DNA from: Patescibacteria group bacterium
GTDB taxonomy: Bacteria; Patescibacteriota; Microgenomatia; UBA1400; PJMF01
Assembly (NCBI GenBank): GCA_049322575.1
Contig: JBMORQ010000015.1
Span: 13,373 to 77,372, forward strand
Direction of reading: 5' to 3'
Length of the DNA stretch: 64,000 bases
In this document: positions 23,885-55,515 of the stretch, one piece after another
How positions within the stretch are numbered: position 1 is the stretch's first letter
Layout of the letters: each line of letters starts with the position of its first letter
Notes under the pieces: model-generated
What the model was told of the DNA's origin: nothing
The model's database searches: none
The model's input: only the letters and a program-made list of their open reading frames with translations
Program-made: the position numbers and the translations under genes

Positions 23885-24976
23885 ATGTATCAACCAATTT
23901 TTTCAATTACCTCAAACTTGCTAACATACCTCACAACAATCGAGGCAGCCAAAGCATTAATCGATCATTCTCCGCTGGTTCCGGCCTGGGAGGCTAAGTT
24001 TCGCGATGAGGCTTTGGCCAGGACCGTTCATTTTGGTACCAAGATTGAGGGCAATGATCTAACTCAGGAGCAAGCTCAGCAAGTAGTGAGATTGCAAGGA
24101 TTGGTAGATAGTAAAGAAATCGCTGAGCAAGCCGGAATTGTTGCTAGAGAGCGAGACATCCAAGAGGTTATCAACTATCGGAATGTAATAAATTGGATTG
24201 ATCAACAACACCAAATTGAACAAAAAAATATTTTTAGCATTGAAACTTTGAAAAATATTCATATGCTGACCATGGCCAATTTGTTGCAAGATGATCAGGT
24301 TGGGGAGTTTCGTAAAAAACAAGTAATTGTTCGTGGGGCGCAAAATGGGGAAGTTGTTTTTAGACCACCGGTCTCGGTCGAGGTTCCCTTCCTTGTCGAG
24401 GAGTTTTTCCAATGGTTAAATCATCCCACCACCAAAAACATTCATCCAATTCTCAGGGCCGCTGCAACTCACTACCAGCTGGCTTTTATTCATCCGTTTA
24501 TTGAGGGAAATGGTCGAACAGCACGCGCTTTGGCCACTTTGGTGCTTTATGACGGTGGCTATGATTTTAAGAAATTCTTTTCTTTGGAGCAGTATTTTGA
24601 TAGCGATGTGGAGAAGTATTATCAGGCGCTGTTGTCTGTTCAGCAAAGTGTTAACTCGGATATGACCTATTGGTTTGAATATTTTTGTTATGGACTGGCC
24701 ATTGAGATTGATAAGGTTAAACAACAGGTTTTAAGACTGTCGAAGGATCTCAAGCTCAAAAAAGAGTTGGGCAAGCAAGTGGCGCTTTCGGAGAGGCAGA
24801 TAATCATTCTGGAAATTCTTCAGAACCAAGGAGAGATTTCTTCAGAAGATGCTCAGCGTGCAATACCAAATGTTTCCGTTGATACGGTTCTTCGCGACCT
24901 CAAAGATTTAATAAAGAAAGGCGTGATTCAAAAACGCGGTGTAACCAAGGGAGTTAGTTATATTTTGAGAGAATAG
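23885..24976 (+). CDS. Fic-family protein (AMPylator-type Fic/Doc) with a C-terminal winged-helix
   Basis: An intact Fic active-site motif (HPFIEGNGRTARAL, matching HxFx(D/E)GNGRxxR). Confidence 0.85.
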   Translation: MYQPIFSITSNLLTYLTTIEAAKALIDHSPLVPAWEAKFRDEALARTVHFGTKIEGNDLTQEQAQQVVRLQGLVDSKEIAEQAGIVARERDIQEVINYRNVINWIDQQHQIEQKNIFSIETLKNIHMLTMANLLQDDQVGEFRKKQVIVRGAQNGEVVFRPPVSVEVPFLVEEFFQWLNHPTTKNIHPILRAAATHYQLAFIHPFIEGNGRTARALATLVLYDGGYDFKKFFSLEQYFDSDVEKYYQALLSVQQSVNSDMTYWFEYFCYGLAIEIDKVKQQVLRLSKDLKLKKELGKQVALSERQIIILEILQNQGEISSEDAQRAIPNVSVDTVLRDLKDLIKKGVIQKRGVTKGVSYILRE

Positions 24977-35191: not shown

Positions 35192-37534
35192 ATGAGAAAC
35201 ATATCCACTCCAGAGCAGATGGCAGAAAAAGCAATGGGCGTTGTTTTTGGCCTATTTATGCTTGTGTTCTTGTTGGCTGCACTGATAGGAATTGCTTACT
35301 TATTATTTCTTTGGTTGAAGCGTCGCAATCGCGAAAACTACGCTCTGGATTTTGTTACCCTCATGATCCGGTTACCAAAAGACAACGAGATCAAGGTCGA
35401 TGCTGCTGAGCAGATGTTTGCCAGTCTTTTCTCTCTTAAAAAATCTGGCTGGATGGCCTTCGCCAAACCTGAAGAGGTGATTAGCTTTGAGATTGTGGCA
35501 CTCAAGGAATACATCGCATTTTATGTTTGCTGTCCCAAACGCATCCGTGATCTGGTAGAAAAACAAATTCAGGGCGCATATCCTCAAAGTGATATTAAAC
35601 AGGTGGATGAAGTTAATATTTTTAATGAAAATGGTAGGGTGGCCTTCGCCGATATTAAGTTGTCGAAGTCCAAGTATTTACCCATTAAAACCTACAAAGA
35701 TTTGCCAACCGATGGTTTGTCTTTGATAACTTCTGCTATGTCCAAGATGGGCGATGGTGAAGGTGCAATTTTGCAGTTTCTCTTCCAGCCCGAAGGCCAT
35801 AAATGGCAGGTTGCTGGGCGCTCCTACATGCAAAAAGAGAAAAAACGTGAGGCAGATCCAGACAAGGCGAGTTATAACCATGATCCTAAAGAAATGGAGG
35901 CGATAGGTAATAAGATTGAAAAGCCAGGATTTCGGGTAGCGATTCGAGCGGTGGTTTCGTCGCCCAACGAAATGATGGCTAAATCTCATTTGGAAAACAT
36001 TGTTGGAGCTTTTTCTCAGTTTACTTCTGCTTACAACAACTTTGGCAAACACATTCCTTTTTTTAAACACTTTTTCATGATCGATTTTATTTATCGTTAC
36101 ATGCCTTTTTTTGATCGCAATGTTTGCACTTTGAACACTGAGGAATTTGCCACGGTTTTTCATCTGCCAAATAAAACAGTTGCGACACACCACATCCAAT
36201 GGTTAACCGCAAAAAATGCCCCTGCACCAAACAATATTCCCAATCAAGGTTTGTATTTAGGCAAATCGATGTATCGTGGCGAAGCCCGTGAGGTTTTCAT
36301 GGACATCAACGACAGGCGTCGACACATGTACATTATTGGAAAAACCGGTACCGGTAAATCAGAGTATTTGAAAGAAATGATTTTACAGGATATTGAAAAC
36401 GGTTATGGAGTTTGTGCTATCGACCCCCATGGTGAGTTTGTTGAAGACATCTTACAACTCATGCCACCAGAGCGCGCCGAAGACGTAATTTATTTTAACC
36501 CCTCGGATTTGGAGAGGCCGATGGGCTTGAACATGATGGAGGCCGACACCGAGGAGCAGCGTCATTTTGTGGTGAGCTCGATCATCGGCTTGATGTATAA
36601 GCTTTACGATCCTCACCGCACTGGTATCATTGGTCCCCGTTTTGAGCACGCTATCCGCAACGCCATGTTAACTGTCATGAGCCGAGAAAACTCAACGTTT
36701 ATTGAGCTAGTGCGTTGTTTGACCGATCAAAAATTTGTTGAAGAAATGCTGCCTTATGTTAAAGACCCGGTGGTGAAACGCTATTGGACGGATCAGATCG
36801 CTCAGACCTCAGACTTTCACAAATCGGAAGTTTTGGATTACATCGTTTCCAAGTTTGGCCGCTTTGTAACTAACAAAACCATGCGTAATATTATTGGTCA
36901 AACTCAAAGTGCTTTTAATTTCCGCAAGGCCATGGACGAGAAGAAAATTATTTTGGTTAATTTATCCAAGGGTATTTTGGGCGAGGAAGACGCCAAGTTT
37001 TTAGGTTTGATTTTGGTGCCAAAAGTCCTGACTGCGGCCATGAGCCGTCAAGATGTGCCGATGGATCAACGCGAAGACTTTTTCCTTTATGTTGACGAGT
37101 TTCAGAACTACGCCACCGAGGATTTTGCTACGATCTTGTCCGAGGCGCGTAAATATCGTTTAAATCTAATCGTGGCTAACCAGTTTATTGGTCAGATTGA
37201 CGAAGAGATCAAGAATGCGGTTTTTGGCAACGTTGGCACGATTGTCTCTTTCCGCGTGGGTGTGACTGATGCCAACTTTTTGCAACACGAGTTTGCGCCA
37301 GTTTTTAACGAAAACGACCTGACCAACATCGAGAAATTTCACGTATACATCAAGACAATTGTTAAGAACGAACCAGTTGAAGCCTTTAGTATGTCGCTGC
37401 AAAAAGACATGGACGCGCAACAGGCTCGGATGAATCCCAAATTGGCGGAAATGATCAAAGAACTCTCGCGCTTGAAATACGGCAAGGACCGCTCGGTCAT
37501 TGAGGCCGACATGCAGGTGCGGGCGAAGTTGTAG
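35192..37534 (+). CDS. VirD4/TraG-family type IV coupling protein-like ATPase (T4CP)
   Basis: An N-terminal transmembrane helix, a Walker A motif (IIGKTGTGKSEY) followed by AIDPHGE (compare the xxDPKGD of TrwB/VirD4), a Walker B motif (FFLYVDEFQNY), and the T4CP-like LIVANQFIGQI motif (the Q-x-x-x-Q-L family). Confidence 0.6.
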   Translation: MRNISTPEQMAEKAMGVVFGLFMLVFLLAALIGIAYLLFLWLKRRNRENYALDFVTLMIRLPKDNEIKVDAAEQMFASLFSLKKSGWMAFAKPEEVISFEIVALKEYIAFYVCCPKRIRDLVEKQIQGAYPQSDIKQVDEVNIFNENGRVAFADIKLSKSKYLPIKTYKDLPTDGLSLITSAMSKMGDGEGAILQFLFQPEGHKWQVAGRSYMQKEKKREADPDKASYNHDPKEMEAIGNKIEKPGFRVAIRAVVSSPNEMMAKSHLENIVGAFSQFTSAYNNFGKHIPFFKHFFMIDFIYRYMPFFDRNVCTLNTEEFATVFHLPNKTVATHHIQWLTAKNAPAPNNIPNQGLYLGKSMYRGEAREVFMDINDRRRHMYIIGKTGTGKSEYLKEMILQDIENGYGVCAIDPHGEFVEDILQLMPPERAEDVIYFNPSDLERPMGLNMMEADTEEQRHFVVSSIIGLMYKLYDPHRTGIIGPRFEHAIRNAMLTVMSRENSTFIELVRCLTDQKFVEEMLPYVKDPVVKRYWTDQIAQTSDFHKSEVLDYIVSKFGRFVTNKTMRNIIGQTQSAFNFRKAMDEKKIILVNLSKGILGEEDAKFLGLILVPKVLTAAMSRQDVPMDQREDFFLYVDEFQNYATEDFATILSEARKYRLNLIVANQFIGQIDEEIKNAVFGNVGTIVSFRVGVTDANFLQHEFAPVFNENDLTNIEKFHVYIKTIVKNEPVEAFSMSLQKDMDAQQARMNPKLAEMIKELSRLKYGKDRSVIEADMQVRAKL

Positions 37535-37551: not shown

Positions 37552-40500
37552 ATGCATGAAAAAATTGCTTATCAACCAAAGGATTCACAAAATTCTATTA
37601 GCTTGGCAAAAGAAGAGCTTGTTGTTTTGGAAGAGATTAGAAAGAAGATAGTTGCTGCTGACATCGATTTTAGACTCTCTACTGAGGATTATAAAAATCT
37701 CCTAGAATTGGGTCTTGATAAAAAATGCAACCTTTGGACGAGGAACGATTTACTGTCGGTAATAGTTCTTAGAATCAAGTTTATTTCTCAAGAAATCTTA
37801 GAAAAGACAGACGCAATAAATTTTTTTTCTGATGTAATAGGTAGTTCAGAGATGACCAATGATGGTGAGATTGTATTGCAAAAGGATGCTGATGGTATTG
37901 ACGGTGTTTGCAATAAGGTTCTTCAAAGTCTTGCAACTATTTTTCCAGACAATAAAAACGAGTTACAGGACAAATTGGCTTTTTCGGCAAATCATTTCTT
38001 ATCAATTGGCAATGCATTGGCCTATTTAGCGACGAGCAGTAATCCGACATTTTTTCAGCAAATTGAAACAGAGCTTTTAAATGAAAATCTGATTTGCAAA
38101 ATGAGAAGTGTTTGGTCGCAGGACATGAAAGATGCATTAAACGCCTGTCATCGCGAAAAGACAAAGGAGAGCTATCAGAGATTATTAAAGGCTTATCAGC
38201 GCGAAAAACCAAGGCTGATAGTGTTTTTATGTTTTGCAGTTTCTATGAGTATGTTTGAATCGACTGACCATGGTAATTTTGATAAGCATGCTGAAAGAAT
38301 TATAAAGGGTTTAGAGGACAGTAATTTTATTGGTTCGTTTGTTACTCATGCTGAAGTTATGCAAATTGTTGGAAGCATAGATGCTAATAAAAAACAAAAG
38401 GTTCAACCACAATTGGCGCAATATTTAAAATCGAAACTTGAGAGCGGAGAAATAAACTCTGGGTTTGCGCTCGAAATTTTTGCTTCTGCAAAGAATGGCT
38501 CATCTCTTTTAGAAAGTCCTAGTTTTATCAGATTTTTTGCTGAGATGGAATCATTTTTGATGGATGATTATCTAATTAAAGAAAATGATGCTAAACAAAG
38601 ACTGAGAATTAATCCAAATGTTAGGGCGATTGCCTCATTATTATTGTTGTCAATGTTTTTTGTTGGTGATTCAAAAACATATAGCAGACCTCAGTTACAG
38701 TTAGATTTTGGTAGGTTTTTCCCGATAACCATGAACGTTTTTGGTGGCTTGGAAGAAGGAATCGATACGGTAATCCAAAGGGTTAAGTTTGAAGATAAAA
38801 AAGAAGACGTTGTTGTTGAAGAAAAAAAAGAAACGGTTTCGGTAGAATCTTTAGGTATTGACCCAAAAGCTGTTAATAGCTCTGTGGAAGGACTGGATCA
38901 GGAGTCAGATAGGCAACATGAGGCCGCTCAAAAACTTGCCAATGAACTAGGTGAAAAAGATATCAACGAGTTTTTAATCGATTCTCCCGCTAGCCCAAGT
39001 AGTTTATCGAAATTTCAAACCGGGGCTGTCTCTGCCGAGGGTTATATTGCAACAGGTTATGAGGTTGGTTGTACTTTTAGGAAATCAAGTAGTAGCTCAA
39101 TCGGTTTTTTTAGTAAGGTTTTGTATGACAAAATAGATCCTGGTTCTGGAGAATTTGTTTCAAGCTGGAGTCCATCCAACGAAATTCCCCAGGAGCTTGA
39201 GCAGATTCCAATGATTGTTGCTTCTAGTGGAATGGAAATAATAATTTGCAAATTGTCCGAATTGCAGCCGAATAATTGGTACAGCATCGCAACTACCCCA
39301 TCTCGTTCAGTAGTGCGTGGTCAACTTGTTGCAGATAATCAAGGTGATCAAATTTTGATTCCGATTGAGGTTGTTAAAGATCCAGAAAGTACAACAAGTT
39401 TTTTTAGAATAAATGAAAAATATAAAGAAGATCTTAGCCGGTCGTCTGATTTCCAATTGGTTTATGAACTTGGAGACCCCTTTGATTATCCCCAAAAAGA
39501 AAAGGATGACGGGGTGCCGTTTCTGGACAGAGAATATATTGATCCGGCAATTATGCAAATAATTGACCAGCTCAATGCTGATAAGAATATGGACGAATAT
39601 GAGAAGCTAGTTGTGTTGCGTAAGGCCATGCAAAATTATGGAATATATAGTGTTGATCCAAAAAATGATCAAGATAAGTATTTAGCAGAATTTGTTGGAA
39701 AAGTTGATGCTGCCACTTATACAAAGCTGCGATATTCTTTGTATTTTGGTCAATATGAGCGATTTGGTTTAACGTCCGATACTGGTCCAGTCAAAGGTGC
39801 TGGCGAATGTAATAGATCAAATGGAGCAGCGTTTTTAGCCTTTGAGCATCTTATACTAAACGACTGGAAGATTCGCTTAAGAAGTGGTGACGTGATCTCT
39901 GAAAATGAAAAATATGGTTTTGCTGGATCTGGCCATATTTATATTGAAGCGGTCAACATTAAAAATGGCGAAATAATAGACCTTGATACAACATCTTCTA
40001 ATATAGATGCATACACCCAATCTTTGAGAGCAAAAGGACACGATCCATCAGTGGCCTTTGATGCAAATTTTGAACAATTAGCTAGTGGGACGTTAACAAT
40101 TACTGACTATGATTACAGTAATTATGTAACACCCGATACTTCACTTAACATAGAAGTAGCCTTGATCAGAAAGTCAGAGTGGGGCTGGCCTGTTACGCTT
40201 GATGATGAACTTCTTGCAAAAATTAATACTCCAGACAATTTCATTAATTATAATGATTGGTTTTCTCCTGATAAACTCAAGAAATGGATTGTAAATAGTA
40301 ACTATGGTTATGAGATTAATGTGGCAGATGAGGATGGTGGTGTTGATTACTGTATGCCGGTTTTTAGCAAAAATGATGGATTTACGACTCAAATTACTCC
40401 AGATTCAGTGCTAACTGATGGAATAATTAAAAATAAATTTTTAATTGAAAGAGTCGCTGACAAGGCTATGAAAATGAGGCGTGATTTTGTTGTTGAAATA

Positions 40501-42597
40501 AATGGAACCAACATGTTTCCTTTACCGATTCTTTGGTATGTATCAGTTCCGAGTATACGTTTGAGCACTCCTGATGGTGAGCCAGTAGAAATACAGTTAG
40601 TTGGAATAAAGAATTATGATCAGCCATTTATTTTAATTACCGACCCCAAATATATCGATAGCAAAGAAAGCAATGTTTTCATTTTAAGTTATCTATCTGG
40701 GGCGCTTACTGATAACCGTGATTTTTCTGCAGGAACTTATAAATATGGGTCAGTTGAGCCTCGAGATTTTTATGAAGCTAGGACCAGACTAGAAAATCTG
40801 GGCTTTTCTACTAACGACGCTGAAAGTGCAATTCTCGCAGCTAGAATCATCCAAATAAATGAGCTTTTGGGATCGTCAATCAAATATGGAGAGTGGCAAG
40901 GCAGAGATTTGATTTTCAACAACCTTCTTTCTTTGCAAGCGGACGCACAAGAAATGAATAATGAAAATGCGATTGTTTATGTTGGTGAGCTTTTAAAACT
41001 ATTTAAATTTGCAGATGATTTCATAACATTTTACAGTTCACTAACTAATGAAGAAAAAATGAATGTAAAAATATCAAGTCAATTAAAAATTATTATTGAG
41101 TCGGTTGACTGGCAATTGCTTAAATTAGAAACACCTACTAGCTTCGTAGGAACCGACGATGAAATAATTTATTATGTTGGCGCTGAAAAGATTGAGTATG
41201 TTGACTCACTTTTCTCATATATTTTTTCCTCGTTTTCCCAGCTCATGCCGTCAGAAGGATCAGTTAAGCCATTCACTTCTGGAAAAAGCTCAGAATCAGA
41301 GAATAATCTCAATAACTATTGTGCTGGTGTGTCAATTGATTTTAATGATTTAGCAGCTTGTCAGCTTCAATCACCATTTTTACCGAGTGGTGATGAAATG
41401 GTTAGTGCTATACGAAGAGCAATATTTAACATTGATGATGACTCACCAGTTTTTGAATTATTTTTTCATGATTATAATCCAGTAGAAATTATTAGAGGCA
41501 ATGATGTTATGGCTTCATTACCACTCTCTCAATTTACGCTTGATGACGAAGACGTCGCAGGCGGGATATTTCTTAAAGATGGCAGTGTGGGACCATCATC
41601 TTTTCTCCTTAACAATTCAAGGGCAGACTTATCATGGTGGCAGTATTTCCTTGATAATGAGAAAGGCAATTACAGTGAAGATCAAATTGTCACGCTCTAC
41701 GACACATTGATTAATGTTATCTCTGAGGATCCCGAAAGATATCTTGCTCAGGAACAGTTGCAGAGTCTCAGCGAAGAAAACAAGCAAGAGTTAATCAATA
41801 GATTGCAGGAAAGAGAATTAGAAAAAGTAAAGTTTCTATTTGAGCACATTTGTCGTTCGTTAGTAAAAGGTAACTATAAAGTTTGGAGTTCTTATTTAGC
41901 ACTTCTTTTGCCATTGGCAGCTGGTGCTTATGGTGCCATGCGTTGGCATGCTGAAACATATGATTGGAAGAGGAAGCGATTAAAAAGTATTGAGCTTGAA
42001 AAAGAACTTAAGTTGATTAGTGAAACCTTCAATTTGGAGATTGATTTAGTACGTGCCCATTTTGAAGATCTTGCCAAATCTAGGTCGATGGTTTTAGCCT
42101 TATCCGGAAATGTGAATCCGGAAAATGGCGAATATGATCATCTAAATTTACTGAGACGCTTGGTTGTTACTGCTCTCAAAACCACCGGAGAGACCAGGAT
42201 GCCTTTTAATCTGGGTTTTGAATCAGAGGCAAATAATCCATGGTCAAGCCACGACGTTCCGGCTACCTATTATTCTCATATTGATCAAGCAGTTAATGGT
42301 GGTCAAATTGAAGCAGTTGCATCACTTTGGCCAGACAACCATCAAGCGGCAGTGGTAAAGCAACTTGGCGAAATGTTTAAAGTTGGATCTGGAGGAAAAG
42401 TCATTTCTGCCAATGAGCAAGTTTTAAAAACCCCAGATCAATTTCAAAGACAATTATTGCTAAAAGCGATTGATGATTTACAAAAATCCGGCGTATCGGT
42501 GGAAAAATACCAACAGCAAGCTATTGAGCAAGTAGTTGCCTCTTGTGTTAAGACTTGGCAACAAATTATGATGGATTATCAAAGGATTAAATCATGA
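37552..42597 (+). CDS. Giant protein (1681 aa) of unknown function with an internal papain-fold (transglutaminase/CHAP/NlpC-P60-like) Cys-His-Asp core and a C-terminal transmembrane helix
   Basis: An uninterrupted ORF that starts 17 nt after the T4CP stop codon. At about nt 39780-39990 it encodes GAGECNRSNGAAFLAF...GSGHIYIEAV...IDLDTT, which matches a C-x(~40)-H-x(~15)-D papain-fold core. A C-terminal hydrophobic helix is present (VWSSYLALLLPLAAGAYGAM). Confidence 0.55.
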   Translation: MHEKIAYQPKDSQNSISLAKEELVVLEEIRKKIVAADIDFRLSTEDYKNLLELGLDKKCNLWTRNDLLSVIVLRIKFISQEILEKTDAINFFSDVIGSSEMTNDGEIVLQKDADGIDGVCNKVLQSLATIFPDNKNELQDKLAFSANHFLSIGNALAYLATSSNPTFFQQIETELLNENLICKMRSVWSQDMKDALNACHREKTKESYQRLLKAYQREKPRLIVFLCFAVSMSMFESTDHGNFDKHAERIIKGLEDSNFIGSFVTHAEVMQIVGSIDANKKQKVQPQLAQYLKSKLESGEINSGFALEIFASAKNGSSLLESPSFIRFFAEMESFLMDDYLIKENDAKQRLRINPNVRAIASLLLLSMFFVGDSKTYSRPQLQLDFGRFFPITMNVFGGLEEGIDTVIQRVKFEDKKEDVVVEEKKETVSVESLGIDPKAVNSSVEGLDQESDRQHEAAQKLANELGEKDINEFLIDSPASPSSLSKFQTGAVSAEGYIATGYEVGCTFRKSSSSSIGFFSKVLYDKIDPGSGEFVSSWSPSNEIPQELEQIPMIVASSGMEIIICKLSELQPNNWYSIATTPSRSVVRGQLVADNQGDQILIPIEVVKDPESTTSFFRINEKYKEDLSRSSDFQLVYELGDPFDYPQKEKDDGVPFLDREYIDPAIMQIIDQLNADKNMDEYEKLVVLRKAMQNYGIYSVDPKNDQDKYLAEFVGKVDAATYTKLRYSLYFGQYERFGLTSDTGPVKGAGECNRSNGAAFLAFEHLILNDWKIRLRSGDVISENEKYGFAGSGHIYIEAVNIKNGEIIDLDTTSSNIDAYTQSLRAKGHDPSVAFDANFEQLASGTLTITDYDYSNYVTPDTSLNIEVALIRKSEWGWPVTLDDELLAKINTPDNFINYNDWFSPDKLKKWIVNSNYGYEINVADEDGGVDYCMPVFSKNDGFTTQITPDSVLTDGIIKNKFLIERVADKAMKMRRDFVVEINGTNMFPLPILWYVSVPSIRLSTPDGEPVEIQLVGIKNYDQPFILITDPKYIDSKESNVFILSYLSGALTDNRDFSAGTYKYGSVEPRDFYEARTRLENLGFSTNDAESAILAARIIQINELLGSSIKYGEWQGRDLIFNNLLSLQADAQEMNNENAIVYVGELLKLFKFADDFITFYSSLTNEEKMNVKISSQLKIIIESVDWQLLKLETPTSFVGTDDEIIYYVGAEKIEYVDSLFSYIFSSFSQLMPSEGSVKPFTSGKSSESENNLNNYCAGVSIDFNDLAACQLQSPFLPSGDEMVSAIRRAIFNIDDDSPVFELFFHDYNPVEIIRGNDVMASLPLSQFTLDDEDVAGGIFLKDGSVGPSSFLLNNSRADLSWWQYFLDNEKGNYSEDQIVTLYDTLINVISEDPERYLAQEQLQSLSEENKQELINRLQERELEKVKFLFEHICRSLVKGNYKVWSSYLALLLPLAAGAYGAMRWHAETYDWKRKRLKSIELEKELKLISETFNLEIDLVRAHFEDLAKSRSMVLALSGNVNPENGEYDHLNLLRRLVVTALKTTGETRMPFNLGFESEANNPWSSHDVPATYYSHIDQAVNGGQIEAVASLWPDNHQAAVVKQLGEMFKVGSGGKVISANEQVLKTPDQFQRQLLLKAIDDLQKSGVSVEKYQQQAIEQVVASCVKTWQQIMMDYQRIKS

Positions 42598-44432
42598 CAG
42601 AAATACATCATCCGAGACTTGATTTTGATGGGGGCAATGATTCTAGAGCAAGAGCAGAACAGGATTGGGTTATTGCCGAGGCTACTAGAAGAACTGAACA
42701 GGGATCTGATTTCATTGTTACGCCTCATGCTCGTGAAAAACTTAATCGATTAAAGGAAGCATTCCGAAGAGGTAATAGAGTTGTAATAGTTGAAGGTCCA
42801 CCTGGTACGGGTAAGTCTCAACTTTTATACCAACTAGTGATAGAGCTCATGAAAGAGAATCCCGAAATTTTGGGTTATAGCAGGACTCAGGGAGCTCCGG
42901 GTTTAATTTCTGCTGATTTATTAGTTCAGCCAAGAGTTACACCCAAAACTAGCGCTGAAGATAATACTTTTCAGGCATTAGAAAACAATCAGGAATTGAT
43001 GGACAAAATAATTGGGGAGTATGTCCAGCTTTCTATTGGTGGTTTTTTAAATAACTTACCACCCGATGTTCGAAGACAAAAGATAGACTTATTTTTAAAA
43101 AAGATTGGGGTAAAAGGAGCTTTTTCTGAAACGGGTGAGCTTATTCTGGAAGAAGACCAATCGGAGTTTTTACAATTTTTAGAAGACAAAAGACTTCGTC
43201 AAAATTTGGGACCATTGGTTGATAAGAAAATTCTAGCACTGGCTATGGAACTGGGTTTATTGGTAATTATTGACGAGGCTAATATGGTCCGTACACCAAA
43301 TGGACTGGGATTGCAGGGACTAGAAAATGCTTTTACGGTCAAGCCCGGGGAAATATTTAATTTTGATGGCCTGTTTGTTATAGTTGATAAAGTTTTTGGT
43401 GTATTTATGACAACCAACAGTATTGACGAAATTTCGCCAGCAATTGCTAGGTTTGGTAGATCAGGTCATTTGACAATGAACGCTGACTCCGGAGATATGG
43501 CTGCTGCAGCAAGAGTTTTATTAACCGATGAAAAAGGTAAGTTTATTCTGTCAGAAAGAAAAAGAGATGAATCGGAATTGTGTAGGTTAATATGGTGGCT
43601 TGAGGACCTAAATTTAGAGGGAATAGATGTTAGCTTGAACTTAGTGACTCCGCTTTGTAAATTGATGGCAGAGGGTATGGATTTTAGGCAAGCATTTCAG
43701 CAGATAGTACAAAGCTTAAAAAGGGAAGAAAAGGATTATTTAATATCTAGAATTCGAGGCTCATTTCAAAGTACAGCTGGCGAGGATGAGGAAGCCTTTG
43801 GCCGTCAATCACTATCACAACTAAATTGTTTATACAACTCTGATGTTTTTGGTAATGAAAGGAAGGAAGCTCTTGTTGATTCTGGTTTTCGTGCTGAGTT
43901 TAATCAGACAACCGGAACGTGTTTTGTCACCGATGGAAACAACTCCGTTATTACAGAACACCAGTTTAAGATAGATGGATCAATCACTAAGCAGATCTCG
44001 TCTCCAGATGGAAAACTTCTTATAATGAATTCTGAAGGTGGATTGATTGTTATTGATACAGTTTTAATGCAGGCAATTCCAGTTTTGGATTCTAAACAAA
44101 TCGGTAAAGACTCAGAAAACATTGGTAATGAACGAGGCTTGAGAAATATCGAGGTTCATGAATTTTGTTGGGCAAACCATAATCAGCTGTTGGCCGTAAT
44201 TAAACGAGGCTCAAACTGGGAAGTGGCGCTTTTTTCAAAAGTGAAACAAAGAGCTGAGGCTGGTGAGTCGCCGATATCATTTCTCAAGATTGAAGAATCA
44301 AGAAAAATTGAACAACCTCAGAATGTGCTCGTAGAGGGCAAGCAGTTGATCGTTGATGATTATTTATACTCAGTTAATCAGGACGACCTTCTTAACCCAT
44401 TAGCGCGAAAAAAATTTAGCAATGCTAGTTGA
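42594..44432 (+). CDS. AAA+ ATPase (AAA_5/MoxR/McrB-like class)
   Basis: The start codon overlaps the giant gene's stop codon (ATGA). It carries a Walker A motif (VVIVEGPPGTGKSQL), a Walker B motif (LLVIIDEANMV) and a sensor-like ARFGRSGH segment. Confidence 0.7.
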   Translation: MTEIHHPRLDFDGGNDSRARAEQDWVIAEATRRTEQGSDFIVTPHAREKLNRLKEAFRRGNRVVIVEGPPGTGKSQLLYQLVIELMKENPEILGYSRTQGAPGLISADLLVQPRVTPKTSAEDNTFQALENNQELMDKIIGEYVQLSIGGFLNNLPPDVRRQKIDLFLKKIGVKGAFSETGELILEEDQSEFLQFLEDKRLRQNLGPLVDKKILALAMELGLLVIIDEANMVRTPNGLGLQGLENAFTVKPGEIFNFDGLFVIVDKVFGVFMTTNSIDEISPAIARFGRSGHLTMNADSGDMAAAARVLLTDEKGKFILSERKRDESELCRLIWWLEDLNLEGIDVSLNLVTPLCKLMAEGMDFRQAFQQIVQSLKREEKDYLISRIRGSFQSTAGEDEEAFGRQSLSQLNCLYNSDVFGNERKEALVDSGFRAEFNQTTGTCFVTDGNNSVITEHQFKIDGSITKQISSPDGKLLIMNSEGGLIVIDTVLMQAIPVLDSKQIGKDSENIGNERGLRNIEVHEFCWANHNQLLAVIKRGSNWEVALFSKVKQRAEAGESPISFLKIEESRKIEQPQNVLVEGKQLIVDDYLYSVNQDDLLNPLARKKFSNAS

Positions 44433-48343: not shown

Positions 48344-49351
48344 TTGCATCGACAACAATCAACCTTGAAGTTATACTTCACACTTATGAAGTACAAACAT
48401 CTGGAAAAAACCAGCGAGATTGACAGAAAATTGCAACGGCTTTTACAACAGGTTCCATACGGTGCGAAATATTTGGCTGGCTTGATGGACTGGTTTAGCA
48501 TCGAACTGACTTATACCTCCAACGCACTCGAAGGCAACACCCTTACCAGGGCAGAAACAGCATTGGTGATTGAAAATGGCTTGACGACAGCGGGAAAAAC
48601 GATTCGCGAACATCTTGAAGCGATTAATCATGCCCAGGCTTTTGAATTTATAAAAAACAAAGTCGATCAATCAACTCAAGAACATAAAAATTTAGATGAA
48701 GATGATATTCTTAAAGCTCATCGCCTCATTTTGCAAAAAATTGATGATCAAAATGCTGGTCGCTATCGAAACGTTCCAGTTAGAATTTCGGGGTCGAGGG
48801 TAGTCATGCCCAATGCCGCTAAGATACCAGATTTAATGTCGGAGTTGGTTGCCGATTTTGGCAAGTCGAAGCAACATGTCGTTACTCAAGCAGTCGATTT
48901 TCACTTGCGTTTGGTGTCAATTCATCCATTTCTTGATGGCAATGGCCGCGTGGCCAGATTGATGATGAATTTTTGGCTCATGATGTATGGTTATCCGCCG
49001 CTAATAGTTTCCAAGGAGGTGCGCAGGCAATATCTTTCAAGCATTGAAAAAGTACAACTTGGTGGCTCATCTGCCGATTATTACAACCTCATGTACCAAG
49101 CCATGAATTATTCGCTGGATATTTGTCTAGAAAATTCCCAGCAACAAGAAAAGCTCCGCCAGTTAAACAAAAAATCTTTATTAAAAATTGGTGATTTTGC
49201 CAATCTGTCTTCTGAAACTGTGCCAACTATCCGCTATTGGACCAAGCAGGGATTAATTGATGTAGACGATTATTCTAGGGGTGGTTATCAGCTTTATTCA
49301 CCAAGTGCTATCAAAAGAACTAAGAAAATTCGCCAACTTCAGAAAAATTAA
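48344..49351 (+). CDS. Fic-family protein fused to a C-terminal MerR-type HTH
   Basis: The class II inhibitory motif TSNALEGN (matching [ST]xxxE[GN]), the Fic motif HPFLDGNGRVARLM, and a C-terminal segment IGDFANLSSETVPTIRYWTKQGLID...GGYQLY typical of the MerR N-terminal HTH. Confidence 0.8.
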   Translation: MHRQQSTLKLYFTLMKYKHLEKTSEIDRKLQRLLQQVPYGAKYLAGLMDWFSIELTYTSNALEGNTLTRAETALVIENGLTTAGKTIREHLEAINHAQAFEFIKNKVDQSTQEHKNLDEDDILKAHRLILQKIDDQNAGRYRNVPVRISGSRVVMPNAAKIPDLMSELVADFGKSKQHVVTQAVDFHLRLVSIHPFLDGNGRVARLMMNFWLMMYGYPPLIVSKEVRRQYLSSIEKVQLGGSSADYYNLMYQAMNYSLDICLENSQQQEKLRQLNKKSLLKIGDFANLSSETVPTIRYWTKQGLIDVDDYSRGGYQLYSPSAIKRTKKIRQLQKN

Positions 49352-49425: not shown

Positions 49426-50064
49426 TTATTTCTTAGACAGTCTATTTTGGAGATATTCTTTTACGTTTTTAATAATGATATCTTTAATTTGAGAGTCGGA
49501 ATATTCTTTTCCGACCCATTCAATTGGTGTCATTTCCAAATCATCAAAGAAAGTTAGTGGATCGAGAATCCATCTCTGGTTTATTTGATATCTGGCAACT
49601 GACTCTTCGACAGCTTCTTTTAGTGAGCAAACACTTTGTTCCAAACAGATGGCTACATCAACATAATCTCTCCACGTGGCTCTTCTGCCTATGACATAAA
49701 GCTTTGAACTAAAAATATCTTTGATGTTTACAAGGGAAAAATTTTCAAAATCTTGTGGATTGTGTAAGAGTGGCGCTTCGTCTTGAAAGAAAGTAATTTT
49801 TACTTCATCGGCAAAAGCTGTATATTGTGATTCTGAAAGCAGGCGTTGTGATAAATCAAAATTTTTGAGGACTTGTTGGACTTTTTTTACTAAATCAGCT
49901 CCTATTTTTTCCTGGGTAACGAAATCTAAATCATATGATTTTCTGTGGCCAATTTGCAGGGAAAGAGCAGTTCCTCCTAGTAATTTACCAAGATTTAAAT
50001 TTCCGAGTTTTTCTAGTAGTTCCAGTTGTTTGGCAGAAACTGTTTCAAAGTGCAAATTTGACAT
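49426..50064 (-). CDS. Nucleotidyltransferase of the AbiEii/DUF1814 type (type IV toxin-antitoxin or abortive-infection toxin-like)
   Basis: Contains LGGTALSLQIGHRKSYDLDF, which matches the AbiEii signature (l.GGTAL.l..gHR.S.DlDf). Confidence 0.6.
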   Translation of the reverse strand: MSNLHFETVSAKQLELLEKLGNLNLGKLLGGTALSLQIGHRKSYDLDFVTQEKIGADLVKKVQQVLKNFDLSQRLLSESQYTAFADEVKITFFQDEAPLLHNPQDFENFSLVNIKDIFSSKLYVIGRRATWRDYVDVAICLEQSVCSLKEAVEESVARYQINQRWILDPLTFFDDLEMTPIEWVGKEYSDSQIKDIIIKNVKEYLQNRLSKK

Positions 50065-50338
50065 AGTTTTCTTTATCGATGGAATCTGAAATTTTTAGCA
50101 AATAATTTTTGACGAAATTAAAAGTTTGGGGCTGATATGTAGATCTAGGTCTATTAACAAAAGTATTCTTAATTTTAGTTAGAGAATAAATCTTCTCAAG
50201 CCATTTAAAATCGTTTAAATCACCGTATTGCAACACTTGATGAATAATGTATTCACGGTGTTTTTCTTTATCAAGTTGAGAAAAATCACACGACCAAAAA
50301 ATTTTTTGTGCAGATCTGGGTAAGCTCTTTAAGGCCAT
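50045..50338 (-). CDS. Small protein partner of the AbiEii-like gene (possible antitoxin); the start is moved to the ATG at 50338
   Basis: It overlaps the downstream AbiEii-like gene by 20 nt. The ORF-track start at 50362 is a TTG lying inside the repeat's terminal inverted repeat, whereas the first ATG, at 50336-50338, lies just outside the repeat. Confidence 0.35.
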   Translation of the reverse strand: MALKSLPRSAQKIFWSCDFSQLDKEKHREYIIHQVLQYGDLNDFKWLEKIYSLTKIKNTFVNRPRSTYQPQTFNFVKNYLLKISDSIDKENYVKFAL

Positions 50339-50347
50339 AGCTGAAAT

Positions 50348-50510
50348 TAGACTTGTAGCCAAATAAAATTTTGTAGTGAAAAATTGATTTTTTTGAACGA
50401 AAAGGGTTTTTTTGAGCGAAGTAGTAGCATAGCTAATTCGAGCGAGAAAAAAACCTTTGTAGTACTTAAAAGCAGTTTTGTAATAAAAATGTTATTTCAC
50501 TACAAGTCTA
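50348..50510. repeat. Full-length copy (163 bp) of the dispersed repeat with terminal inverted repeats TAGACTTGTAGCCAAATA ... TATTTCACTACAAGTCTA
   Basis: It is near-identical, in inverted orientation, to copy 11683-11844 and shares the internal block ttgaacgaaaagggtttttttgagcgaagtagta. Confidence 0.75.
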
Positions 50511-50611: not shown

Positions 50612-51823
50612 CTACTCATACCTCAACGCCTCAATGGGTGAGAGTTTTGATGCGCGACGAGCCGGAGCGGCGCCAAAAACCAGTCCCACCACCGTTGAAA
50701 CGCCAAAGGCCAAGCCCACGGCTGTCATGGTAACTTTGGCTGGGAAATATGGTTGGATTAGTGCCGAGCCCAGGAACGCCAAGCCCAAGCCGATCAAGCC
50801 GCCTAAAATAGACAAAAACGCCGCCTCGATTAGAAACTGCAGCAGGATCTGGTTAGGTGTGGCACCCAGGGCCTTACGCAGTCCAATCTCGCGTGTTCGT
50901 TCGGTCACTGAGACAAGCATGATGTTCATAATACCGATGCCACCCACCAAAAGTGAAATAGCTGCGATGCCACCCAGACCAACTGTAAAGGCTCCCAAGA
51001 TCTGATTAATCGTATCCAGAATTTCGGACTGGTCAAAAACGCTAAACTCTTTGTCCTCCAGGCGCTGGGACAGCAGATCCTCTATGGCTTTGATTGCCTC
51101 AGGCATGACGTCTTTGTTTTTAGCCTTGGCCATGATTTCCATGATGGTATTCTTGTCGTAAATGTTGGAAAAAGTGCTAAACGGGATAAAAACATAAGTG
51201 TCAAAGGACGGCCCGCCGAAGCCACTCCCTTGCTTGTCAGCCACGCCCGCCACCACAAAAGTTTGGTTGCCAATCTTAATTCTCTTGCCAACTGGATCTG
51301 ATTCGCCAAAAAGTTTGTTGGCAATTTCATAGCCTAAAACAGCTACTCTTTTGCTGGATAAATCATCGTTTTTACCAAAAAAACTATCTTTTTCTGTGAC
51401 AGATTTCATGATGTCTTGATATCGATAGGTGGTGCCCACCACCGAGACGGTTTTGGTTTCATCACGATATGATGCTTTATCTGAAGCGGTATTGATTGGT
51501 ACGGCAAATAAAATAAACTCTCGCAAACCCTCGATGTCGTTGACGTCGCTCATTTTCAGCTTGCTGTTACTGAAACTTGCCGTTTGGCTTTCTCGATTAA
51601 ATCCACCATCTTCGCCAAAAATATCACCAGGATAAATGAAAATATTGCTTGACCCCAGGCTCTCAAATTGCTCGGTAACGTAGGCCTGTAGGCCGTTGCC
51701 GATGGCTGTGAGCATGGTGACGGAAAAAACACCGATGATGACGCCCAAGACCGTTAGAAAACTCCTGACTTTATTGGTGATGATGGCTCGTAGGGCTATG
51801 ATAAAAGTGTTTTGAACTGTCAT
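50612..51823 (-). CDS. ABC transporter permease, MacB/FtsX family
   Basis: An N-terminal transmembrane helix, a large periplasmic-type domain, then a C-terminal FtsX-like four-helix bundle (the GLRKALGAT motif). Confidence 0.85.
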   Translation of the reverse strand: MTVQNTFIIALRAIITNKVRSFLTVLGVIIGVFSVTMLTAIGNGLQAYVTEQFESLGSSNIFIYPGDIFGEDGGFNRESQTASFSNSKLKMSDVNDIEGLREFILFAVPINTASDKASYRDETKTVSVVGTTYRYQDIMKSVTEKDSFFGKNDDLSSKRVAVLGYEIANKLFGESDPVGKRIKIGNQTFVVAGVADKQGSGFGGPSFDTYVFIPFSTFSNIYDKNTIMEIMAKAKNKDVMPEAIKAIEDLLSQRLEDKEFSVFDQSEILDTINQILGAFTVGLGGIAAISLLVGGIGIMNIMLVSVTERTREIGLRKALGATPNQILLQFLIEAAFLSILGGLIGLGLAFLGSALIQPYFPAKVTMTAVGLAFGVSTVVGLVFGAAPARRASKLSPIEALRYE

Positions 51824-51824
51824 C

Positions 51825-52646
51825 TTATCTTTTTTTCTTGGTGTATTGATCAGACTTTGTCAGCTTGCTGTAATCAATGGTTTGGGTTTTGTCCAAAACT
51901 TCATTGTTTAGTTTTAGGCAATGTGCCGATTGTTGCGAAGAGCCAGGTTTTCTGGTGTCGGAAACAATCTCACCGTCTTTGATCACCACTCTTCGTTTGG
52001 CGATTGAGGCGACTTCATTTTCATGGGTAACTAGAATAATGGTTTTGCCCTCCTTGTTAAGCTTTTTGAGGATTTTTTCGACTTCCAAACCGCTTTTGGA
52101 GTCCAAGTTACCGGTTGGCTCATCAGCAAAAATTATGCTTGGGCTGTTAACCAAGGCTCTGGCGATAGCTACGCGTTGCTGCTGGCCTCCGGAAAGCTGT
52201 GAGGGGGTGTTGTTAAGTCGATCTCCTAGCCCCAGCAGCTCGAGGGCCTCCTTGGCTCGGCGGCGGCGCTCTCTCTCGGGCACGTTGGCATAAAGGAGGG
52301 GCAGGGCCACATTGTCGACAGCCGAGGTTTTAGCAAGCAAGTTAAATTGCTGAAATATAAAGCCAATTTCTTTGTTACGCAACTGAGCTCTCTCGACCTC
52401 ATTGTACTTTGTGACGTCCTTTTCGCCTAAATAAATCTGGCCACTCGAAGGAGCTGCCAACATGCTGGCGATTTGCAGAAAAGTTGATTTTCCTGAACCA
52501 GAAGGACCCATGATCGCCACAAACTCGCCGCTTTCCACACAAAGAGAGACCTGGTTAAGGGCGCGAATCACTTGATCGCCAAGGTGGTAAACTTTGGAGA
52601 CTTGCTTGAGCCGAAGAATGGGTTTAGTACGATTTTTTCCAGACAT
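51825..52646 (-). CDS. ABC transporter ATP-binding protein (MacB/LolD-type)
   Basis: A Walker A motif (GPSGSGKST), the ABC signature LSGGQQQRVAIARAL, and a Walker B motif (IIFADEPT). Confidence 0.9.
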   Translation of the reverse strand: MSGKNRTKPILRLKQVSKVYHLGDQVIRALNQVSLCVESGEFVAIMGPSGSGKSTFLQIASMLAAPSSGQIYLGEKDVTKYNEVERAQLRNKEIGFIFQQFNLLAKTSAVDNVALPLLYANVPERERRRRAKEALELLGLGDRLNNTPSQLSGGQQQRVAIARALVNSPSIIFADEPTGNLDSKSGLEVEKILKKLNKEGKTIILVTHENEVASIAKRRVVIKDGEIVSDTRKPGSSQQSAHCLKLNNEVLDKTQTIDYSKLTKSDQYTKKKR

Positions 52647-52715
52647 GATTATTACTTTTTTGCAGATGTGCCTTTTGCGACATATAACAGAGATTTTTTT
52701 GGTTAACGACTAGAG

Positions 52716-53825
52716 CTACTGAGGAATCCTTACCTCGTCAGACTCAGATAGGCCGGCAGTTACTTCCACAAAGTCGTCGGTCTCGAGGCCGATTTCAATC
52801 TCTCGTTCAGCGAACGATTCTCCATTTGTCCTCACGTCAACATAATTTTTATTGTCGCGTTGGCGGATGGCATCGATCGGCACGGTCAAAACATTGCTCT
52901 TGCTTGTGACGAGTATCTGAGCATCACCGTTCATGCCTAGACGGTATTTTTCCAGGCTGCTGTTGTTGGGAAAGGGCATTTCGATGATAAAAGAGGTGCC
53001 GCTGGATGTTTCGGTACTCTTGTAGGAAATGAACTTGACAAAGCTGTCAACTGTTTCGTCCGGATAGGCATCAAGGGTGATATAGGCCGATTGACTGGCC
53101 ATGACCTGGGCGATCTCGGCTTCATCAACCAGTGCCTTAAAAATCAGGCTACCGGGATTGATAACCTCAAATGAGTCGGTGGCCAGTAATTGCACACCCT
53201 TAACATTAGTTGGTGATTCAATCAAAACCCCTTCAATGGGCGAAGATAAAACCGTGTTACGGATAGCGATGTCACGAATTTCCACATCGAGAACCTCGTT
53301 TTCCAGATCCCACTGATTTTGATCAACCGAGCGCTGCTCGCGCTTGTCGATAGTGCGATCCTTGATGTCATCGAGTTGCTGATCCCAGTCCCAGCGTTCT
53401 TTCATGTAGTTGTTGAGATCCTGTTGCAGACGCTTGTTAAGATCAGCTTGGTCGATCGTGGCTAGGGTTTGGCCTTTTTTGATCCAATCGCCTTCTTGCG
53501 CCCCCAGATAAACGACTTTACCACCAGCCGCGAAGCGTAGACTGGCTTTTTCTTTGGCGTCAATAATTCCTGAGATTTCGAGGTATTTAGTTAAATCTTG
53601 TCTGACAGGATGCTCAAAGACCTCTGGAGTTTTTAAAGACGCTTGCCTTAGCTGCCATCGCCAAACTACAAAAAGAATTAAAGCGATTATGAGCAACCAC
53701 CAAAATTTTGATTTCACAAAGCCTAATGTCAAACGACCAGCTTTGCGAACGAGGGCTAAAGCTTTCATAAATAACCAGTTTAATGCATCGACAAAGGAAA
53801 AGCTAGGATTTTGTTTGCACAACAT
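52716..53825 (-). CDS. Periplasmic adaptor / membrane-fusion protein (HlyD/MacA family)
   Basis: An N-terminal transmembrane anchor followed by coiled-coil and lipoyl-like segments; it lies upstream of the ABC ATPase and permease in one operon. Confidence 0.75.
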   Translation of the reverse strand: MLCKQNPSFSFVDALNWLFMKALALVRKAGRLTLGFVKSKFWWLLIIALILFVVWRWQLRQASLKTPEVFEHPVRQDLTKYLEISGIIDAKEKASLRFAAGGKVVYLGAQEGDWIKKGQTLATIDQADLNKRLQQDLNNYMKERWDWDQQLDDIKDRTIDKREQRSVDQNQWDLENEVLDVEIRDIAIRNTVLSSPIEGVLIESPTNVKGVQLLATDSFEVINPGSLIFKALVDEAEIAQVMASQSAYITLDAYPDETVDSFVKFISYKSTETSSGTSFIIEMPFPNNSSLEKYRLGMNGDAQILVTSKSNVLTVPIDAIRQRDNKNYVDVRTNGESFAEREIEIGLETDDFVEVTAGLSESDEVRIPQ

Positions 53826-53962
53826 CCATTTCCAGGCAATTACTTTGTCATGATAACTTGACAGCTGGTCTGAGATCTATCGCGGGTAAACTAGATTACT
53901 GAATTACTTGGGGGAGGAGAACTCTGCTAGAACAGATCGTATTGGGGAGGAGACCCAAATTG

Positions 53963-54036
53963 TGAGCCGGGGAGGACTTGAACCCCCGACCAGTAAGGTA
54001 TAAGCTTACCGCTCTAACCAACTGAGCTACCGGCTC
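53963..54036 (-). tRNA. tRNA-Ile with anticodon UAU (reads AUA)
   Basis: Folded by hand into a cloverleaf. The acceptor stem is GAGCCGG/CCGGCTC, positions 8-9 are U-A, the D stem is GCTC/GAGC, the anticodon stem is GTAAG/CTTAC with loop C-U-UAU-A-C, and the T arm is GGGGG-TTCAAGT-CCTCC with discriminator A. The 3' CCA is not encoded. Confidence 0.8.
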
Positions 54037-54276
54037 ACGAATGATCTGTAGCTCAAGGCTTGAACAAGCTCTGGGCCACTAGATTAACAGCTTGATTATA
54101 ACAACTGGATTATATCAGTTGAACCCAAGAACAAAAGGCTTTGTTCACCAGTGTCTGTTCACCAGTCCAATCAAGGGATGTAGCCAACAAGTGGTGGAGA
54201 GAAGCCATGCAGCTCGCAATTGGCAAAAAAACCCCGGCACTTGGCCGGGGTAGTTAATTTCTTTACAAGTTGTAAT

Positions 54277-55515
54277 CTAGAGGAAGAGCAAGAGTAGAGC
54301 ACCTACACCTAGGGCTACAAGCCCGACCTTGAGATAGTTCATCCAATCAGCTGGGCCGGTTTGAGGTAACTCAGCTGGCAGTTCTTGGGCTACGTAAACT
54401 GTCTCAACATACTTGGTGGTGGCACCACTTGGCATTCTGCAATACTGATCCTCGGGATTGACGTCAAGCCTACAGCGTCCGTTGTAGCAGATATGACTGA
54501 CATTGGCACAGTCTGAGTTGATTGAGCAGGTGTCATTACATTGAACAGTAGTGACAACTATGTAGCCAGTCGGTTGTGGTGAAACATATGGAGGCAGGGT
54601 TGGTACTGGGGTATTGGTGGCACCAGGCACTGGCGTGTTAGTTGGCACAGTCGGGGCGGTGCAACATGAACTGTAGCTCGGGTTAGCCGCACAGGCCGTT
54701 CGATATTCGTTGTAGCCACAGTAGTTGCTGCCGTTACTGGCTGGGATACAGACCAAGCTACCAGTACAGTCATCGTCATTTGAACATGGTGTGTAACCAC
54801 AGTCGCTGGGAGCGGGAGTTGGTGTAGCCGTTGGAGCAGCTGTACAACAACTTGCAACACTTGGACTGGCGATACAGGCAGTTCTGTATTGTGGCAAACT
54901 ACAGTAGTTATTGCCGTTGTTTGCAGTGACACAGACTAGTTCTCCGGCACAACTGTTATCATCGGTGCAAGGCGTGTATCCACATTCACTTGGAGCTGGT
55001 GTTGCTGTTGGAGTCGGGGTGGACGACGGGGTTGGTGTGCGGGACGGTGTCGGTGATGGCCCACGGGTTGGTGTGGGGGAAACCGATGGCCGCCTGGTTG
55101 GGGTTGGCGATTGTCTGGTGATTGTTGGGCTAGGTCGTGGTGTTGAGGTAGCCGTGACACGAGGTGTTGTTGGAGTGGGATTGACAGCTCCGACATCGAA
55201 AGTTAGAGTACAAGTGGCTGTTTTCGAAACATATGCGGCCGGTTCTGACTCAGGAGCATTAGGAGCCACTGGCGCTGTTTTGCTGATGCGCTGCTTCTGA
55301 GAGATGAGTACACCTGCTAAGCCAGCGACTAAAACGAGGATGAGAGCCACAACCCCAAGCAAAGCGCGAACATCAACACCAAGAAGCTTCTTGGGTGATT
55401 TCTTTTTGAAACCACTGGGAATGTTGGCCGACGGTACATTACCAATCACTTGATCAGGGTTGTTGGCGTGATCCTTCATATATAAAGCTTGTGGTTGGTT
55501 ATTAGTGTCTATCAT
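54277..55515 (-). CDS. Cysteine-rich, Pro/Thr-rich surface protein with an N-terminal signal anchor and a C-terminal LPXTG sorting signal
   Basis: An N-terminal transmembrane helix (VALILVLVAGLAGVLI); two internal repeats of about 60 aa, each with eight Cys (ECGYTPC..C.G.LVC....NG.NYC....YRTAC...PS..SCCTA); and C-terminal LPQTG followed by a hydrophobic tail. Confidence 0.6.
   Translation of the reverse strand: MIDTNNQPQALYMKDHANNPDQVIGNVPSANIPSGFKKKSPKKLLGVDVRALLGVVALILVLVAGLAGVLISQKQRISKTAPVAPNAPESEPAAYVSKTATCTLTFDVGAVNPTPTTPRVTATSTPRPSPTITRQSPTPTRRPSVSPTPTRGPSPTPSRTPTPSSTPTPTATPAPSECGYTPCTDDNSCAGELVCVTANNGNNYCSLPQYRTACIASPSVASCCTAAPTATPTPAPSDCGYTPCSNDDDCTGSLVCIPASNGSNYCGYNEYRTACAANPSYSSCCTAPTVPTNTPVPGATNTPVPTLPPYVSPQPTGYIVVTTVQCNDTCSINSDCANVSHICYNGRCRLDVNPEDQYCRMPSGATTKYVETVYVAQELPAELPQTGPADWMNYLKVGLVALGVGALLLLFL

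Follow-up and report, generated by a model that had tools for sequence, protein, structure and literature searches.

A genuine tRNA-Ile gene with a genomically encoded UAU anticodon is present in the 64-kb stretch of DNA analysed here (64,000 nt; the window), which is chromosomal DNA from near oriC of a member of the Microgenomates group of Patescibacteria (CPR). By its sequence-level defining features, the gene belongs to the known bacterial class of isoleucine tRNAs with an encoded UAU anticodon, named tRNA-Ile2(UAU) or tRNA-Ile3 in the literature. Comparison with seven relatives suggests a functional, conserved AUA-reading tRNA-Ile, a reading to which we assign a probability of about 0.85.

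ARAGORN called a single tRNA in the window, an isoleucine tRNA with anticodon tat (53962–54036, minus strand). Rfam model RF00005 matched 53963–54036 on the same strand over its full length (model positions 1–71) with 69.1 bits (E = 5.5e-13; gathering score, 29), and this was the sole Rfam family detected in the 64 kb. The earlier note, made from the letters alone, had described the only tRNA of the window as a tRNA-Ile with anticodon UAU in the loop CUUAUAC, had left its strand unstated and had proposed an ARAGORN run on the locus; ARAGORN and Rfam agree with that description and with the count, and place the gene on the minus strand. The RNA reads GAGCCGGUAGCUCAGUUGGUUAGAGCGGUAAGCUUAUACCUUACUGGUCGGGGGUUCAAGUCCUCCCCGGCUCA. 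Its 7-nt anticodon loop, CUUAUAC, carries U33, A37 and C38, and the register of the loop is unambiguous, with the 5-bp anticodon stem paired in all eight orthologues. The CAT anticodon of the canonical TilS substrate is absent: the window and each of the seven orthologues have TAT instead. Thermodynamic folding of the bare sequence favoured a structure in which the D and anticodon regions pair differently from the cloverleaf (−33.0 vs. −27.4 kcal/mol for the cloverleaf); the cloverleaf is supported by the covariance model and by covariation among orthologues, not by the single-sequence fold. Coordinates of the gene and its neighbourhood are collected in Table 1.

Table 1. The tRNA-Ile(UAU) gene and flanking features in the window (position 1 is the first nucleotide of the 64-kb stretch).
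Feature	Position	Strand	Basis
tRNA-Ile(UAU) gene, 74 nt, A73, without encoded CCA	53963..54036	-	ARAGORN, Rfam RF00005, seven syntenic orthologues
Anticodon UAU (TAT on minus strand, ATA on plus strand)	54000..54002	-	Sequence reading
Two extended -10 promoter-like motifs, TGATATAAT (54117-54109) and TGTTATAAT (54103-54095)	54095..54117	-	Motif search
Intrinsic-terminator-like hairpin and T run, ends LPXTG gene	54224..54251	-	Terminator scan
LPXTG cell-wall-anchor protein gene, 412 aa, immediately upstream of tRNA, synteny anchor	54277..55515	-	NCBI name
HlyD-like / ABC ATPase / MacB-FtsX efflux operon	50612..53825	-	Pfam hits

The gene content of the window includes dnaA, dnaN, rpmH-rnpA-yidC, recF, a short ValRS gene, an ATP-dependent DNA ligase gene, and genes for VirB4-like and VirD4-like ATPases of a type IV secretion system (T4SS). 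Among species-representative genomes, the closest DnaA proteins were 55–59% identical and came from Ca. Pacebacteria/Paceibacterota metagenome-assembled genomes (MAGs). The closest named ValRS proteins were those of Ca. Pacebacteria GW2011_GWF2_38_9 (64%), Ca. Woesebacteria (63%) and Microgenomates bacterium 39_7 (63%), and on the strength of these matches the host was assigned to the Microgenomates group. Together with matches to the LPXTG protein, the DnaA and ValRS results bear out the CPR origin that had been proposed for this DNA.

Orthologous loci were reached through homologues of the neighbouring LPXTG protein (33–57% identical to the protein of the window, an identical copy of which NCBI names ‘LPXTG cell wall anchor domain-containing protein’), and the DNA around seven of them was fetched. 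All seven relatives harbor a tRNA-Ile(TAT) gene at the equivalent locus, within ~1.4 kb past the LPXTG gene in six (L202, L203, L204, L205, L330 and L331) and 2.2 kb downstream of it in L207; the comparison with related CPR genomes that the earlier note had advised therefore yields the same gene at a shared locus throughout. Further syntenic genes include an ABC-2 transporter pair upstream, the HlyD/ABC/MacB-FtsX operon downstream, mevalonate-pathway genes, and genes for Pth, an MFS protein and the DNA ligase. Identity of shared proteins ranges from 85% (VirD4-like protein, L202) down to 44–47% (ligase, MFS and Pth in L203 and L205), which indicates a deep clade.

In the alignment of the eight tRNAs (window plus seven relatives; seven distinct sequences, as L205 equals L331), all 147 of 147 stem cells are paired, and 10 of the 21 stem pairs show compensatory changes on both sides. 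The covariation score was 0.585, compared with 0.07–0.10 when the 3′ partners were slid by one to three columns, and none of 500 shuffles matched it. The loop CUUAUAC is unchanged in seven of the eight tRNAs (L204 carries U38), and the three lower pairs of the anticodon stem (A-U, A-U and G-C) are invariant. This pattern points to purifying selection and suggests a functional, vertically inherited chromosomal gene.

A TAT anticodon might also be seen if C34 of a tRNA-Ile2(CAU) gene had recently mutated to T, in a decaying pseudogene, or through an assembly error in one MAG. CAT and TAT differ by a single base, and the acceptor stem of the window tRNA carries C4-G69 and C5-G68, which are TilS determinants in E. 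coli tRNA-Ile2. However, an identical tRNA sequence is found in the independent Logan assembly of SRR32167786, and the seven syntenic orthologues, from different samples, all have TAT and never CAT, with fully compensated stems. Nor are the orthologous loci cross-contaminants, since their sequences differ at many positions. Synteny, covariation and the independent assembly together rule out each of these three explanations, and we give the group a negligible probability; conservation and covariation across eight genomes thereby refute the pseudogene that the earlier note had allowed for.

The two extended –10 motifs on the tRNA strand lie 81 and 67 nt upstream of the mature tRNA 5′ end (in the order of Table 1). 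TGnTATAAT occurs 18–23 nt upstream of the orthologous tRNA in L202, L204 and L205, and weaker –10-like motifs are found in L203 (TGCTAAAAT at –42) and L207 (TATAAT at –47). While a generic two-hexamer sigma-70 scan called no promoter on the tRNA strand, these motifs suggest that the tRNA probably has its own extended –10 promoter. It is separated from the LPXTG gene by the terminator-like hairpin (54251–54231), whose 8-bp stem contains seven GC pairs and is followed by TTTTTTGCCA. On its other side, the efflux operon starts 137 nt downstream of the tRNA; this operon also follows the tRNA in L202, L204 and L330, with copies in L202 and L204 that are 54–72% identical to that of the window. A terminator scan called none between 53825 and 53963, so that tRNA and efflux operon may possibly share a transcript. 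In the stretch separating the HlyD-like gene from the 3′ end of the tRNA (53921–53967), the plus strand carries GGGGAGGAGA twice, ~24 nt apart; on the transcribed strand these read TCTCCTCCCC, i.e. anti-Shine-Dalgarno-like CCUCC motifs.

Metagenome and viral contigs were searched with one tRNA-Ile(TAT) pattern, which matched at least 120 stretches in each of the two collections. The pattern fixed the T-loop as TTCAAGT, and the orthologues, carrying TTCGAGT or TTCGATT, were consequently missed and were recovered via the LPXTG protein. Among the 119 additional metagenome matches listed, ARAGORN classified all 119 as tRNA-Ile(tat) and none exceeded 79% identity with the tRNA of the window; 77 were solitary or paired, 27 stood in phage-like arrays of at least five tRNAs, and 19 adjoined a tRNA-Val(gac). 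A ValRS gene was close to the tRNA in eight of the loci listed, seven of which were among the 19 with tRNA-Val(gac). One of them, L131, is a 976-kb contig whose ValRS is 86% identical to a Ca. Falkowbacteria protein, from which we conclude that a second, distant CPR clade carries tRNA-Ile(UAU). Loci with tRNA-Ile(UAU) and tRNA-Val(GAC), usually adjacent and near valS, were L131, L092, L101, L109, L120, L146, L179 and L181. For instance, L131:497–4619 encodes, in this order, ValRS, a 380-aa ORF, tRNA-Ile(tat) and tRNA-Val(gac). A tRNA-Val gene beside the gene for its own synthetase, with the Ile(UAU) tRNA alongside, is a conserved arrangement of the Falkowbacteria-like clade.

The abundance of viral matches (at least 120 stretches), the 27 of 119 listed metagenome matches in arrays, the VirB4-like, VirD4-like, Fic and AbiEii toxin-antitoxin-like genes of the window, and a GC content of 47–49% around the tRNA (52–58 kb) compared with 30–34% after 58 kb could all be taken to mean that the gene is cargo of a phage, an integrative and conjugative element (ICE) or a genomic island. 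Against this, the tRNA is solitary in 64 kb, its chromosomal flanks are syntenic in seven relatives, and a chromosomal T4SS is typical of Patescibacteria according to PMC12102498, a picture into which the T4SS genes of the window fit. No att-like repeat of the tRNA 3′ end was found elsewhere in the window, no integrase among the neighbours of the tRNA there, and no match between the window and phage records. With these three results and the conserved flanks, an island or att-site reading was rejected, and mobile cargo in general appears highly improbable. Phage-array tRNA-Ile(UAU) genes do share the anticodon, and the loop CUUAUAC occurs in 16 of the 27 array copies vs. 9 of the 77 solitary or paired copies listed; they reside in arrays of 5–36 tRNAs in viral contigs, whereas the window gene is solitary and chromosomal.

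Two further contigs deserve mention. L199 packs 36 tRNAs into 10.6 kb and was weighed as a candidate for a near-complete tRNA set of a CPR bacterium, but was dropped as phage-like, given its 49% GC and aberrant tRNAs. In L121 (2584–2797), 65 nt separate a tRNA-Ile(tat) from the next tRNA, which is called as Ile(aat); to our knowledge, Ile anticodons starting with A are almost without example in bacteria, and this contig probably derives from a phage.

Codon usage was counted over 59 ORFs that do not overlap and together make up 91% of the window. ATA accounted for 250 of 1429 Ile codons (17.5%), or 12.9 per 1000 codons, which gives a figure to the frequent ATA use noticed beforehand, and occurs in genes such as dnaA (nine codons), dnaN (eight) and valS (four). 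Under the categories quoted in PMC12514573, this amounts to ‘high’ usage. When window proteins were aligned with homologues from the collected loci, the residues opposite ATA codons were I in 34%, V in 25%, L in 17% and M in 2.4% of cases. ATT (I 41%) and ATC (I 39%) gave similar profiles, unlike ATG (M 25%), and several ATA positions showed a clear Ile majority in the homologues, e.g. residue 318 of DnaN (Ile in 58 of 67). As ATA aligns like ATT and ATC and not like ATG, AUA is, judging from these alignments, a standard Ile codon in this organism.

In E. coli, the identity set for IleRS comprises A73, U12-A23, C4-G69, C29-G41, A37 and A38. A73, U12-A23 and A37 are present in all eight tRNAs. 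The pair C4-G69 is found in the window tRNA and replaced by U-A in four orthologues (three distinct sequences). Position 38 is C (U in one tRNA) and pair 29-41 is A-U in all eight, unlike A38 and C29-G41 of E. coli; recognition by IleRS, if any, hence follows other rules. More speculatively, the invariant C32/C38 and A29-U41 may serve a form of recognition specific to this lineage, or may tune decoding. A ranking of tRNA-body similarity against 1165 tRNAs from the collected loci is biased, as the TAT comparison set was chosen by a pattern sharing the D and T arms.

The same deviations, C38 and A29-U41, could be read as signs of a non-isoleucine identity with AUA reassigned (e.g. to Met), or of an unmodified U34 superwobbling across the AUN box. 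Codon reassignment does have a precedent in CPR, where UGA is reassigned in some members (Gracilibacteria/SR1). Yet ATA aligns with I, V and L as ATT and ATC do, with M at 2.4%, Ile is the majority residue at several ATA positions such as the one in DnaN, and A73 and U12-A23 are consistent with Ile. Taken together, both readings seem very remote.

With an isoleucine tRNA that reads AUA as the preferred interpretation, the following course of events can be proposed. Transcription would start at an extended –10 promoter belonging to the tRNA itself, RNase P would trim the 5′ end (rnpA lies in the window at about 4913–5278), and CCA would then be added to the transcript enzymatically. A37 would probably become t6A, IleRS would charge the tRNA, and U34 would form a Watson–Crick pair with the A of the frequent AUA codons. 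The UAU tRNA would thus fill the role that most bacteria assign to the TilS-modified tRNA-Ile2(CAU). A deep clade has retained the gene at a single locus, exact anticodon loop included, and for this reason the tRNA is most likely the principal reader of AUA in these bacteria and possibly the sole one. As for the synthetase, no IleRS was found in the window or in the loci of the clade, only ValRS.

The DNA of this genome that was read comprised the window and, through Logan contigs, a further 2.5 kb or so beyond either end. No TilS was found among the annotated ORFs of the window. Likewise, a scan for the PP-loop motif SGGxDS over loci L001–L207, a tiny sample of each genome, returned no TilS, only divergent QueC-like (L203) and ThiI/MnmA-like (L012) sequences. 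An SGGLDS PP-loop protein conserved near the tRNA locus of two relatives (317–326 aa; L203:5157–6137, minus strand, and L202:1–475) has solely a C-terminal QueC-like match, is weakly QatC-like, and adjoins a PqqD-like gene. It is not TilS, and it has no counterpart in the window.

Alternatively, TilS and tRNA-Ile2(CAU) may be retained in these bacteria, with the UAU tRNA as an auxiliary AUA reader. Such dual decoding has precedents, as tRNA-Ile(TAT) exists despite tilS in Lactobacillus casei/plantarum, Cyanothece PCC 7424 and Ferrimonas balearica (Taniguchi et al.), and TilS is present in 98.18% of 1093 bacteria surveyed. However, strict retention of gene, locus and loop while housekeeping proteins are 44–65% identical suits an indispensable gene better, and neither the window nor the small fraction of each genome covered by L001–L207 contains a TilS-like PP-loop ORF. 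Dual decoding is therefore unlikely in our estimate, though well within the conceivable. Given a functional gene, we rate the chance that the UAU tRNA is the sole AUA reader as slightly better than even. A more far-reaching proposal is that this Microgenomates-group clade has lost both TilS and tRNA-Ile2(CAU) and reads AUA through the UAU tRNA alone, that the Falkowbacteria-like clade may do likewise, and that the C32/C38 loop and the A-U-rich lower anticodon stem help to avoid misreading of AUG; we advance it tentatively, at somewhat less than even odds.

Several known systems offer points of comparison. Mycoplasma mobile lacks tilS and reads AUA with a tRNA bearing an unmodified UAU anticodon, Arg865 of its IleRS confers recognition, and the ribosome itself rejects AUG (PMC3575796). 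The window gene resembles this tRNA-Ile2(UAU) in its encoded UAU, reduced genome, frequent AUA, solitary chromosomal position and an A37 available for t6A. It differs in phylum (Patescibacteria vs. Mycoplasmatota), and whereas the absence of tilS, the unmodified U34, the role of Arg865 and the rejection of AUG were demonstrated experimentally in M. mobile, the window gene is known from its sequence. Bifidobacterium and Neorickettsia use a eukaryote-type IleRS (IleRS2) and lack tilS; a UAU gene has replaced the CAU gene lineage-wide there, as it putatively has in the CPR clade. IleRS2 and the loss of tilS are established in those two genera, while the CPR clade is compared with them through its tRNA gene.

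Lactobacillus plantarum and L. casei possess redundant tRNA-Ile(CAU) and tRNA-Ile(UAU), as reported by Tomikawa 2018 and Uesugi 2022 (cited in PMC9976931). They would be the model for the CPR clade if tilS is present in the latter. The UAU gene stands beside tilS in certain species of that group, whereas here it is fixed at one locus in a deep clade. Finally, archaeal tRNA-Ile3(UAU) of Nanoarchaeum equitans and Korarchaeum cryptofilum comes from organisms that are ultra-small or reduced like CPR and that dispense with the TiaS route, the counterpart of a putative dispensing with TilS here; these tRNAs belong to another domain of life and have other tRNA body features.

The earlier note had regarded genomically encoded UAU tRNA-Ile as restricted to a few lineages. 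This holds for cultured or complete genomes: nine species in three clades were without tilS and with tRNA-Ile(TAT) in 2013 (Taniguchi et al., PMC3575796), tRNADB-CE has 19 species with TAT genes, and a tRNAscan-SE 2.0 survey found tRNA-Ile(TAT) in 17 genomes, from Bifidobacterium, Mycoplasma and Neorickettsia. It does not hold for uncultured sequence, in which 371 unique metagenomic tDNA-Ile(TAT) sequences were already counted in 2013 (PMC3575796) and at least 120 metagenomic stretches were matched here. A search of the open full-text literature retrieved no paper pairing lysidine with Patescibacteria and nothing relevant for tilS combined with CPR names. The UAU type of tRNA-Ile is already known, and it seems not to have been discussed previously in Patescibacteria.

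Lysidine made by the bacteria-specific enzyme TilS is regarded as the near-universal, essential bacterial solution to AUA decoding (98% of surveyed genomes), with exceptions known from a few species of Mycoplasma, Bifidobacterium and Neorickettsia. A UAU tRNA-Ile that is fixed in one deep CPR clade and present in a second points to where many further exceptions may be sought and makes the genomes concerned concrete cases for testing the dispensability of TilS across a large part of bacterial diversity. If the CPR clade were TilS-free, including CPR in the count would leave TilS far short of ‘nearly universal’, and no other independent origin of TilS-free AUA decoding among bacteria would be as large as this one. 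As to annotation, tRNA-Ile(TAT) in CPR MAGs should be accepted as real instead of being flagged as anomalous.

Other genes of the window invite brief comment. The ValRS (12411–14741, minus strand) has only 776 aa and lacks the C-terminal coiled-coil region, its match to the NCBIfam valS profile ending at position 696 of 860. Microgenomates-group homologues are of similar shortness (about 740–780 aa), whereas the Falkowbacteria-like ValRS has 874 aa and a PF10458 domain. The ATP-dependent DNA ligase (archaeal/eukaryotic-type, dnl1 superfamily; 655 aa; 25008–26975, plus strand) is kept at the corresponding locus in L205 and L331. T4SS genes and the ORFs that follow them lie at 13–1545, 35192–37534, 37552–42597 and 42594–44432: a VirB4-like ATPase is cut by the window start, and the VirD4/TraD-like coupling protein (the one 85% identical in L202) is followed by a 1681-aa ORF without Pfam hit and a 612-aa P-loop/STAND-like NTPase. 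Toxin-antitoxin-like genes are located at 23885–24976, 48344–49351, 49426–50064 and 50045–50362. They include two Fic-domain proteins with C-terminal HTH domains, one DeoR-like and one MerR-like, and an AbiEii-type nucleotidyltransferase toxin gene that overlaps a DUF6922 gene, a probable toxin-antitoxin pair.

The sharp GC step at 58 kb divides a GC-richer side (47–49% at 52–58 kb), which holds the tRNA together with the efflux operon and two genes for surface proteins, from ABC-2 transporter and glycosyltransferase genes on the other (30–34% at 58–64 kb). Synteny in relatives argues against a chimeric assembly behind this step, and the block of low GC resembles a variable region for cell-surface polysaccharide.
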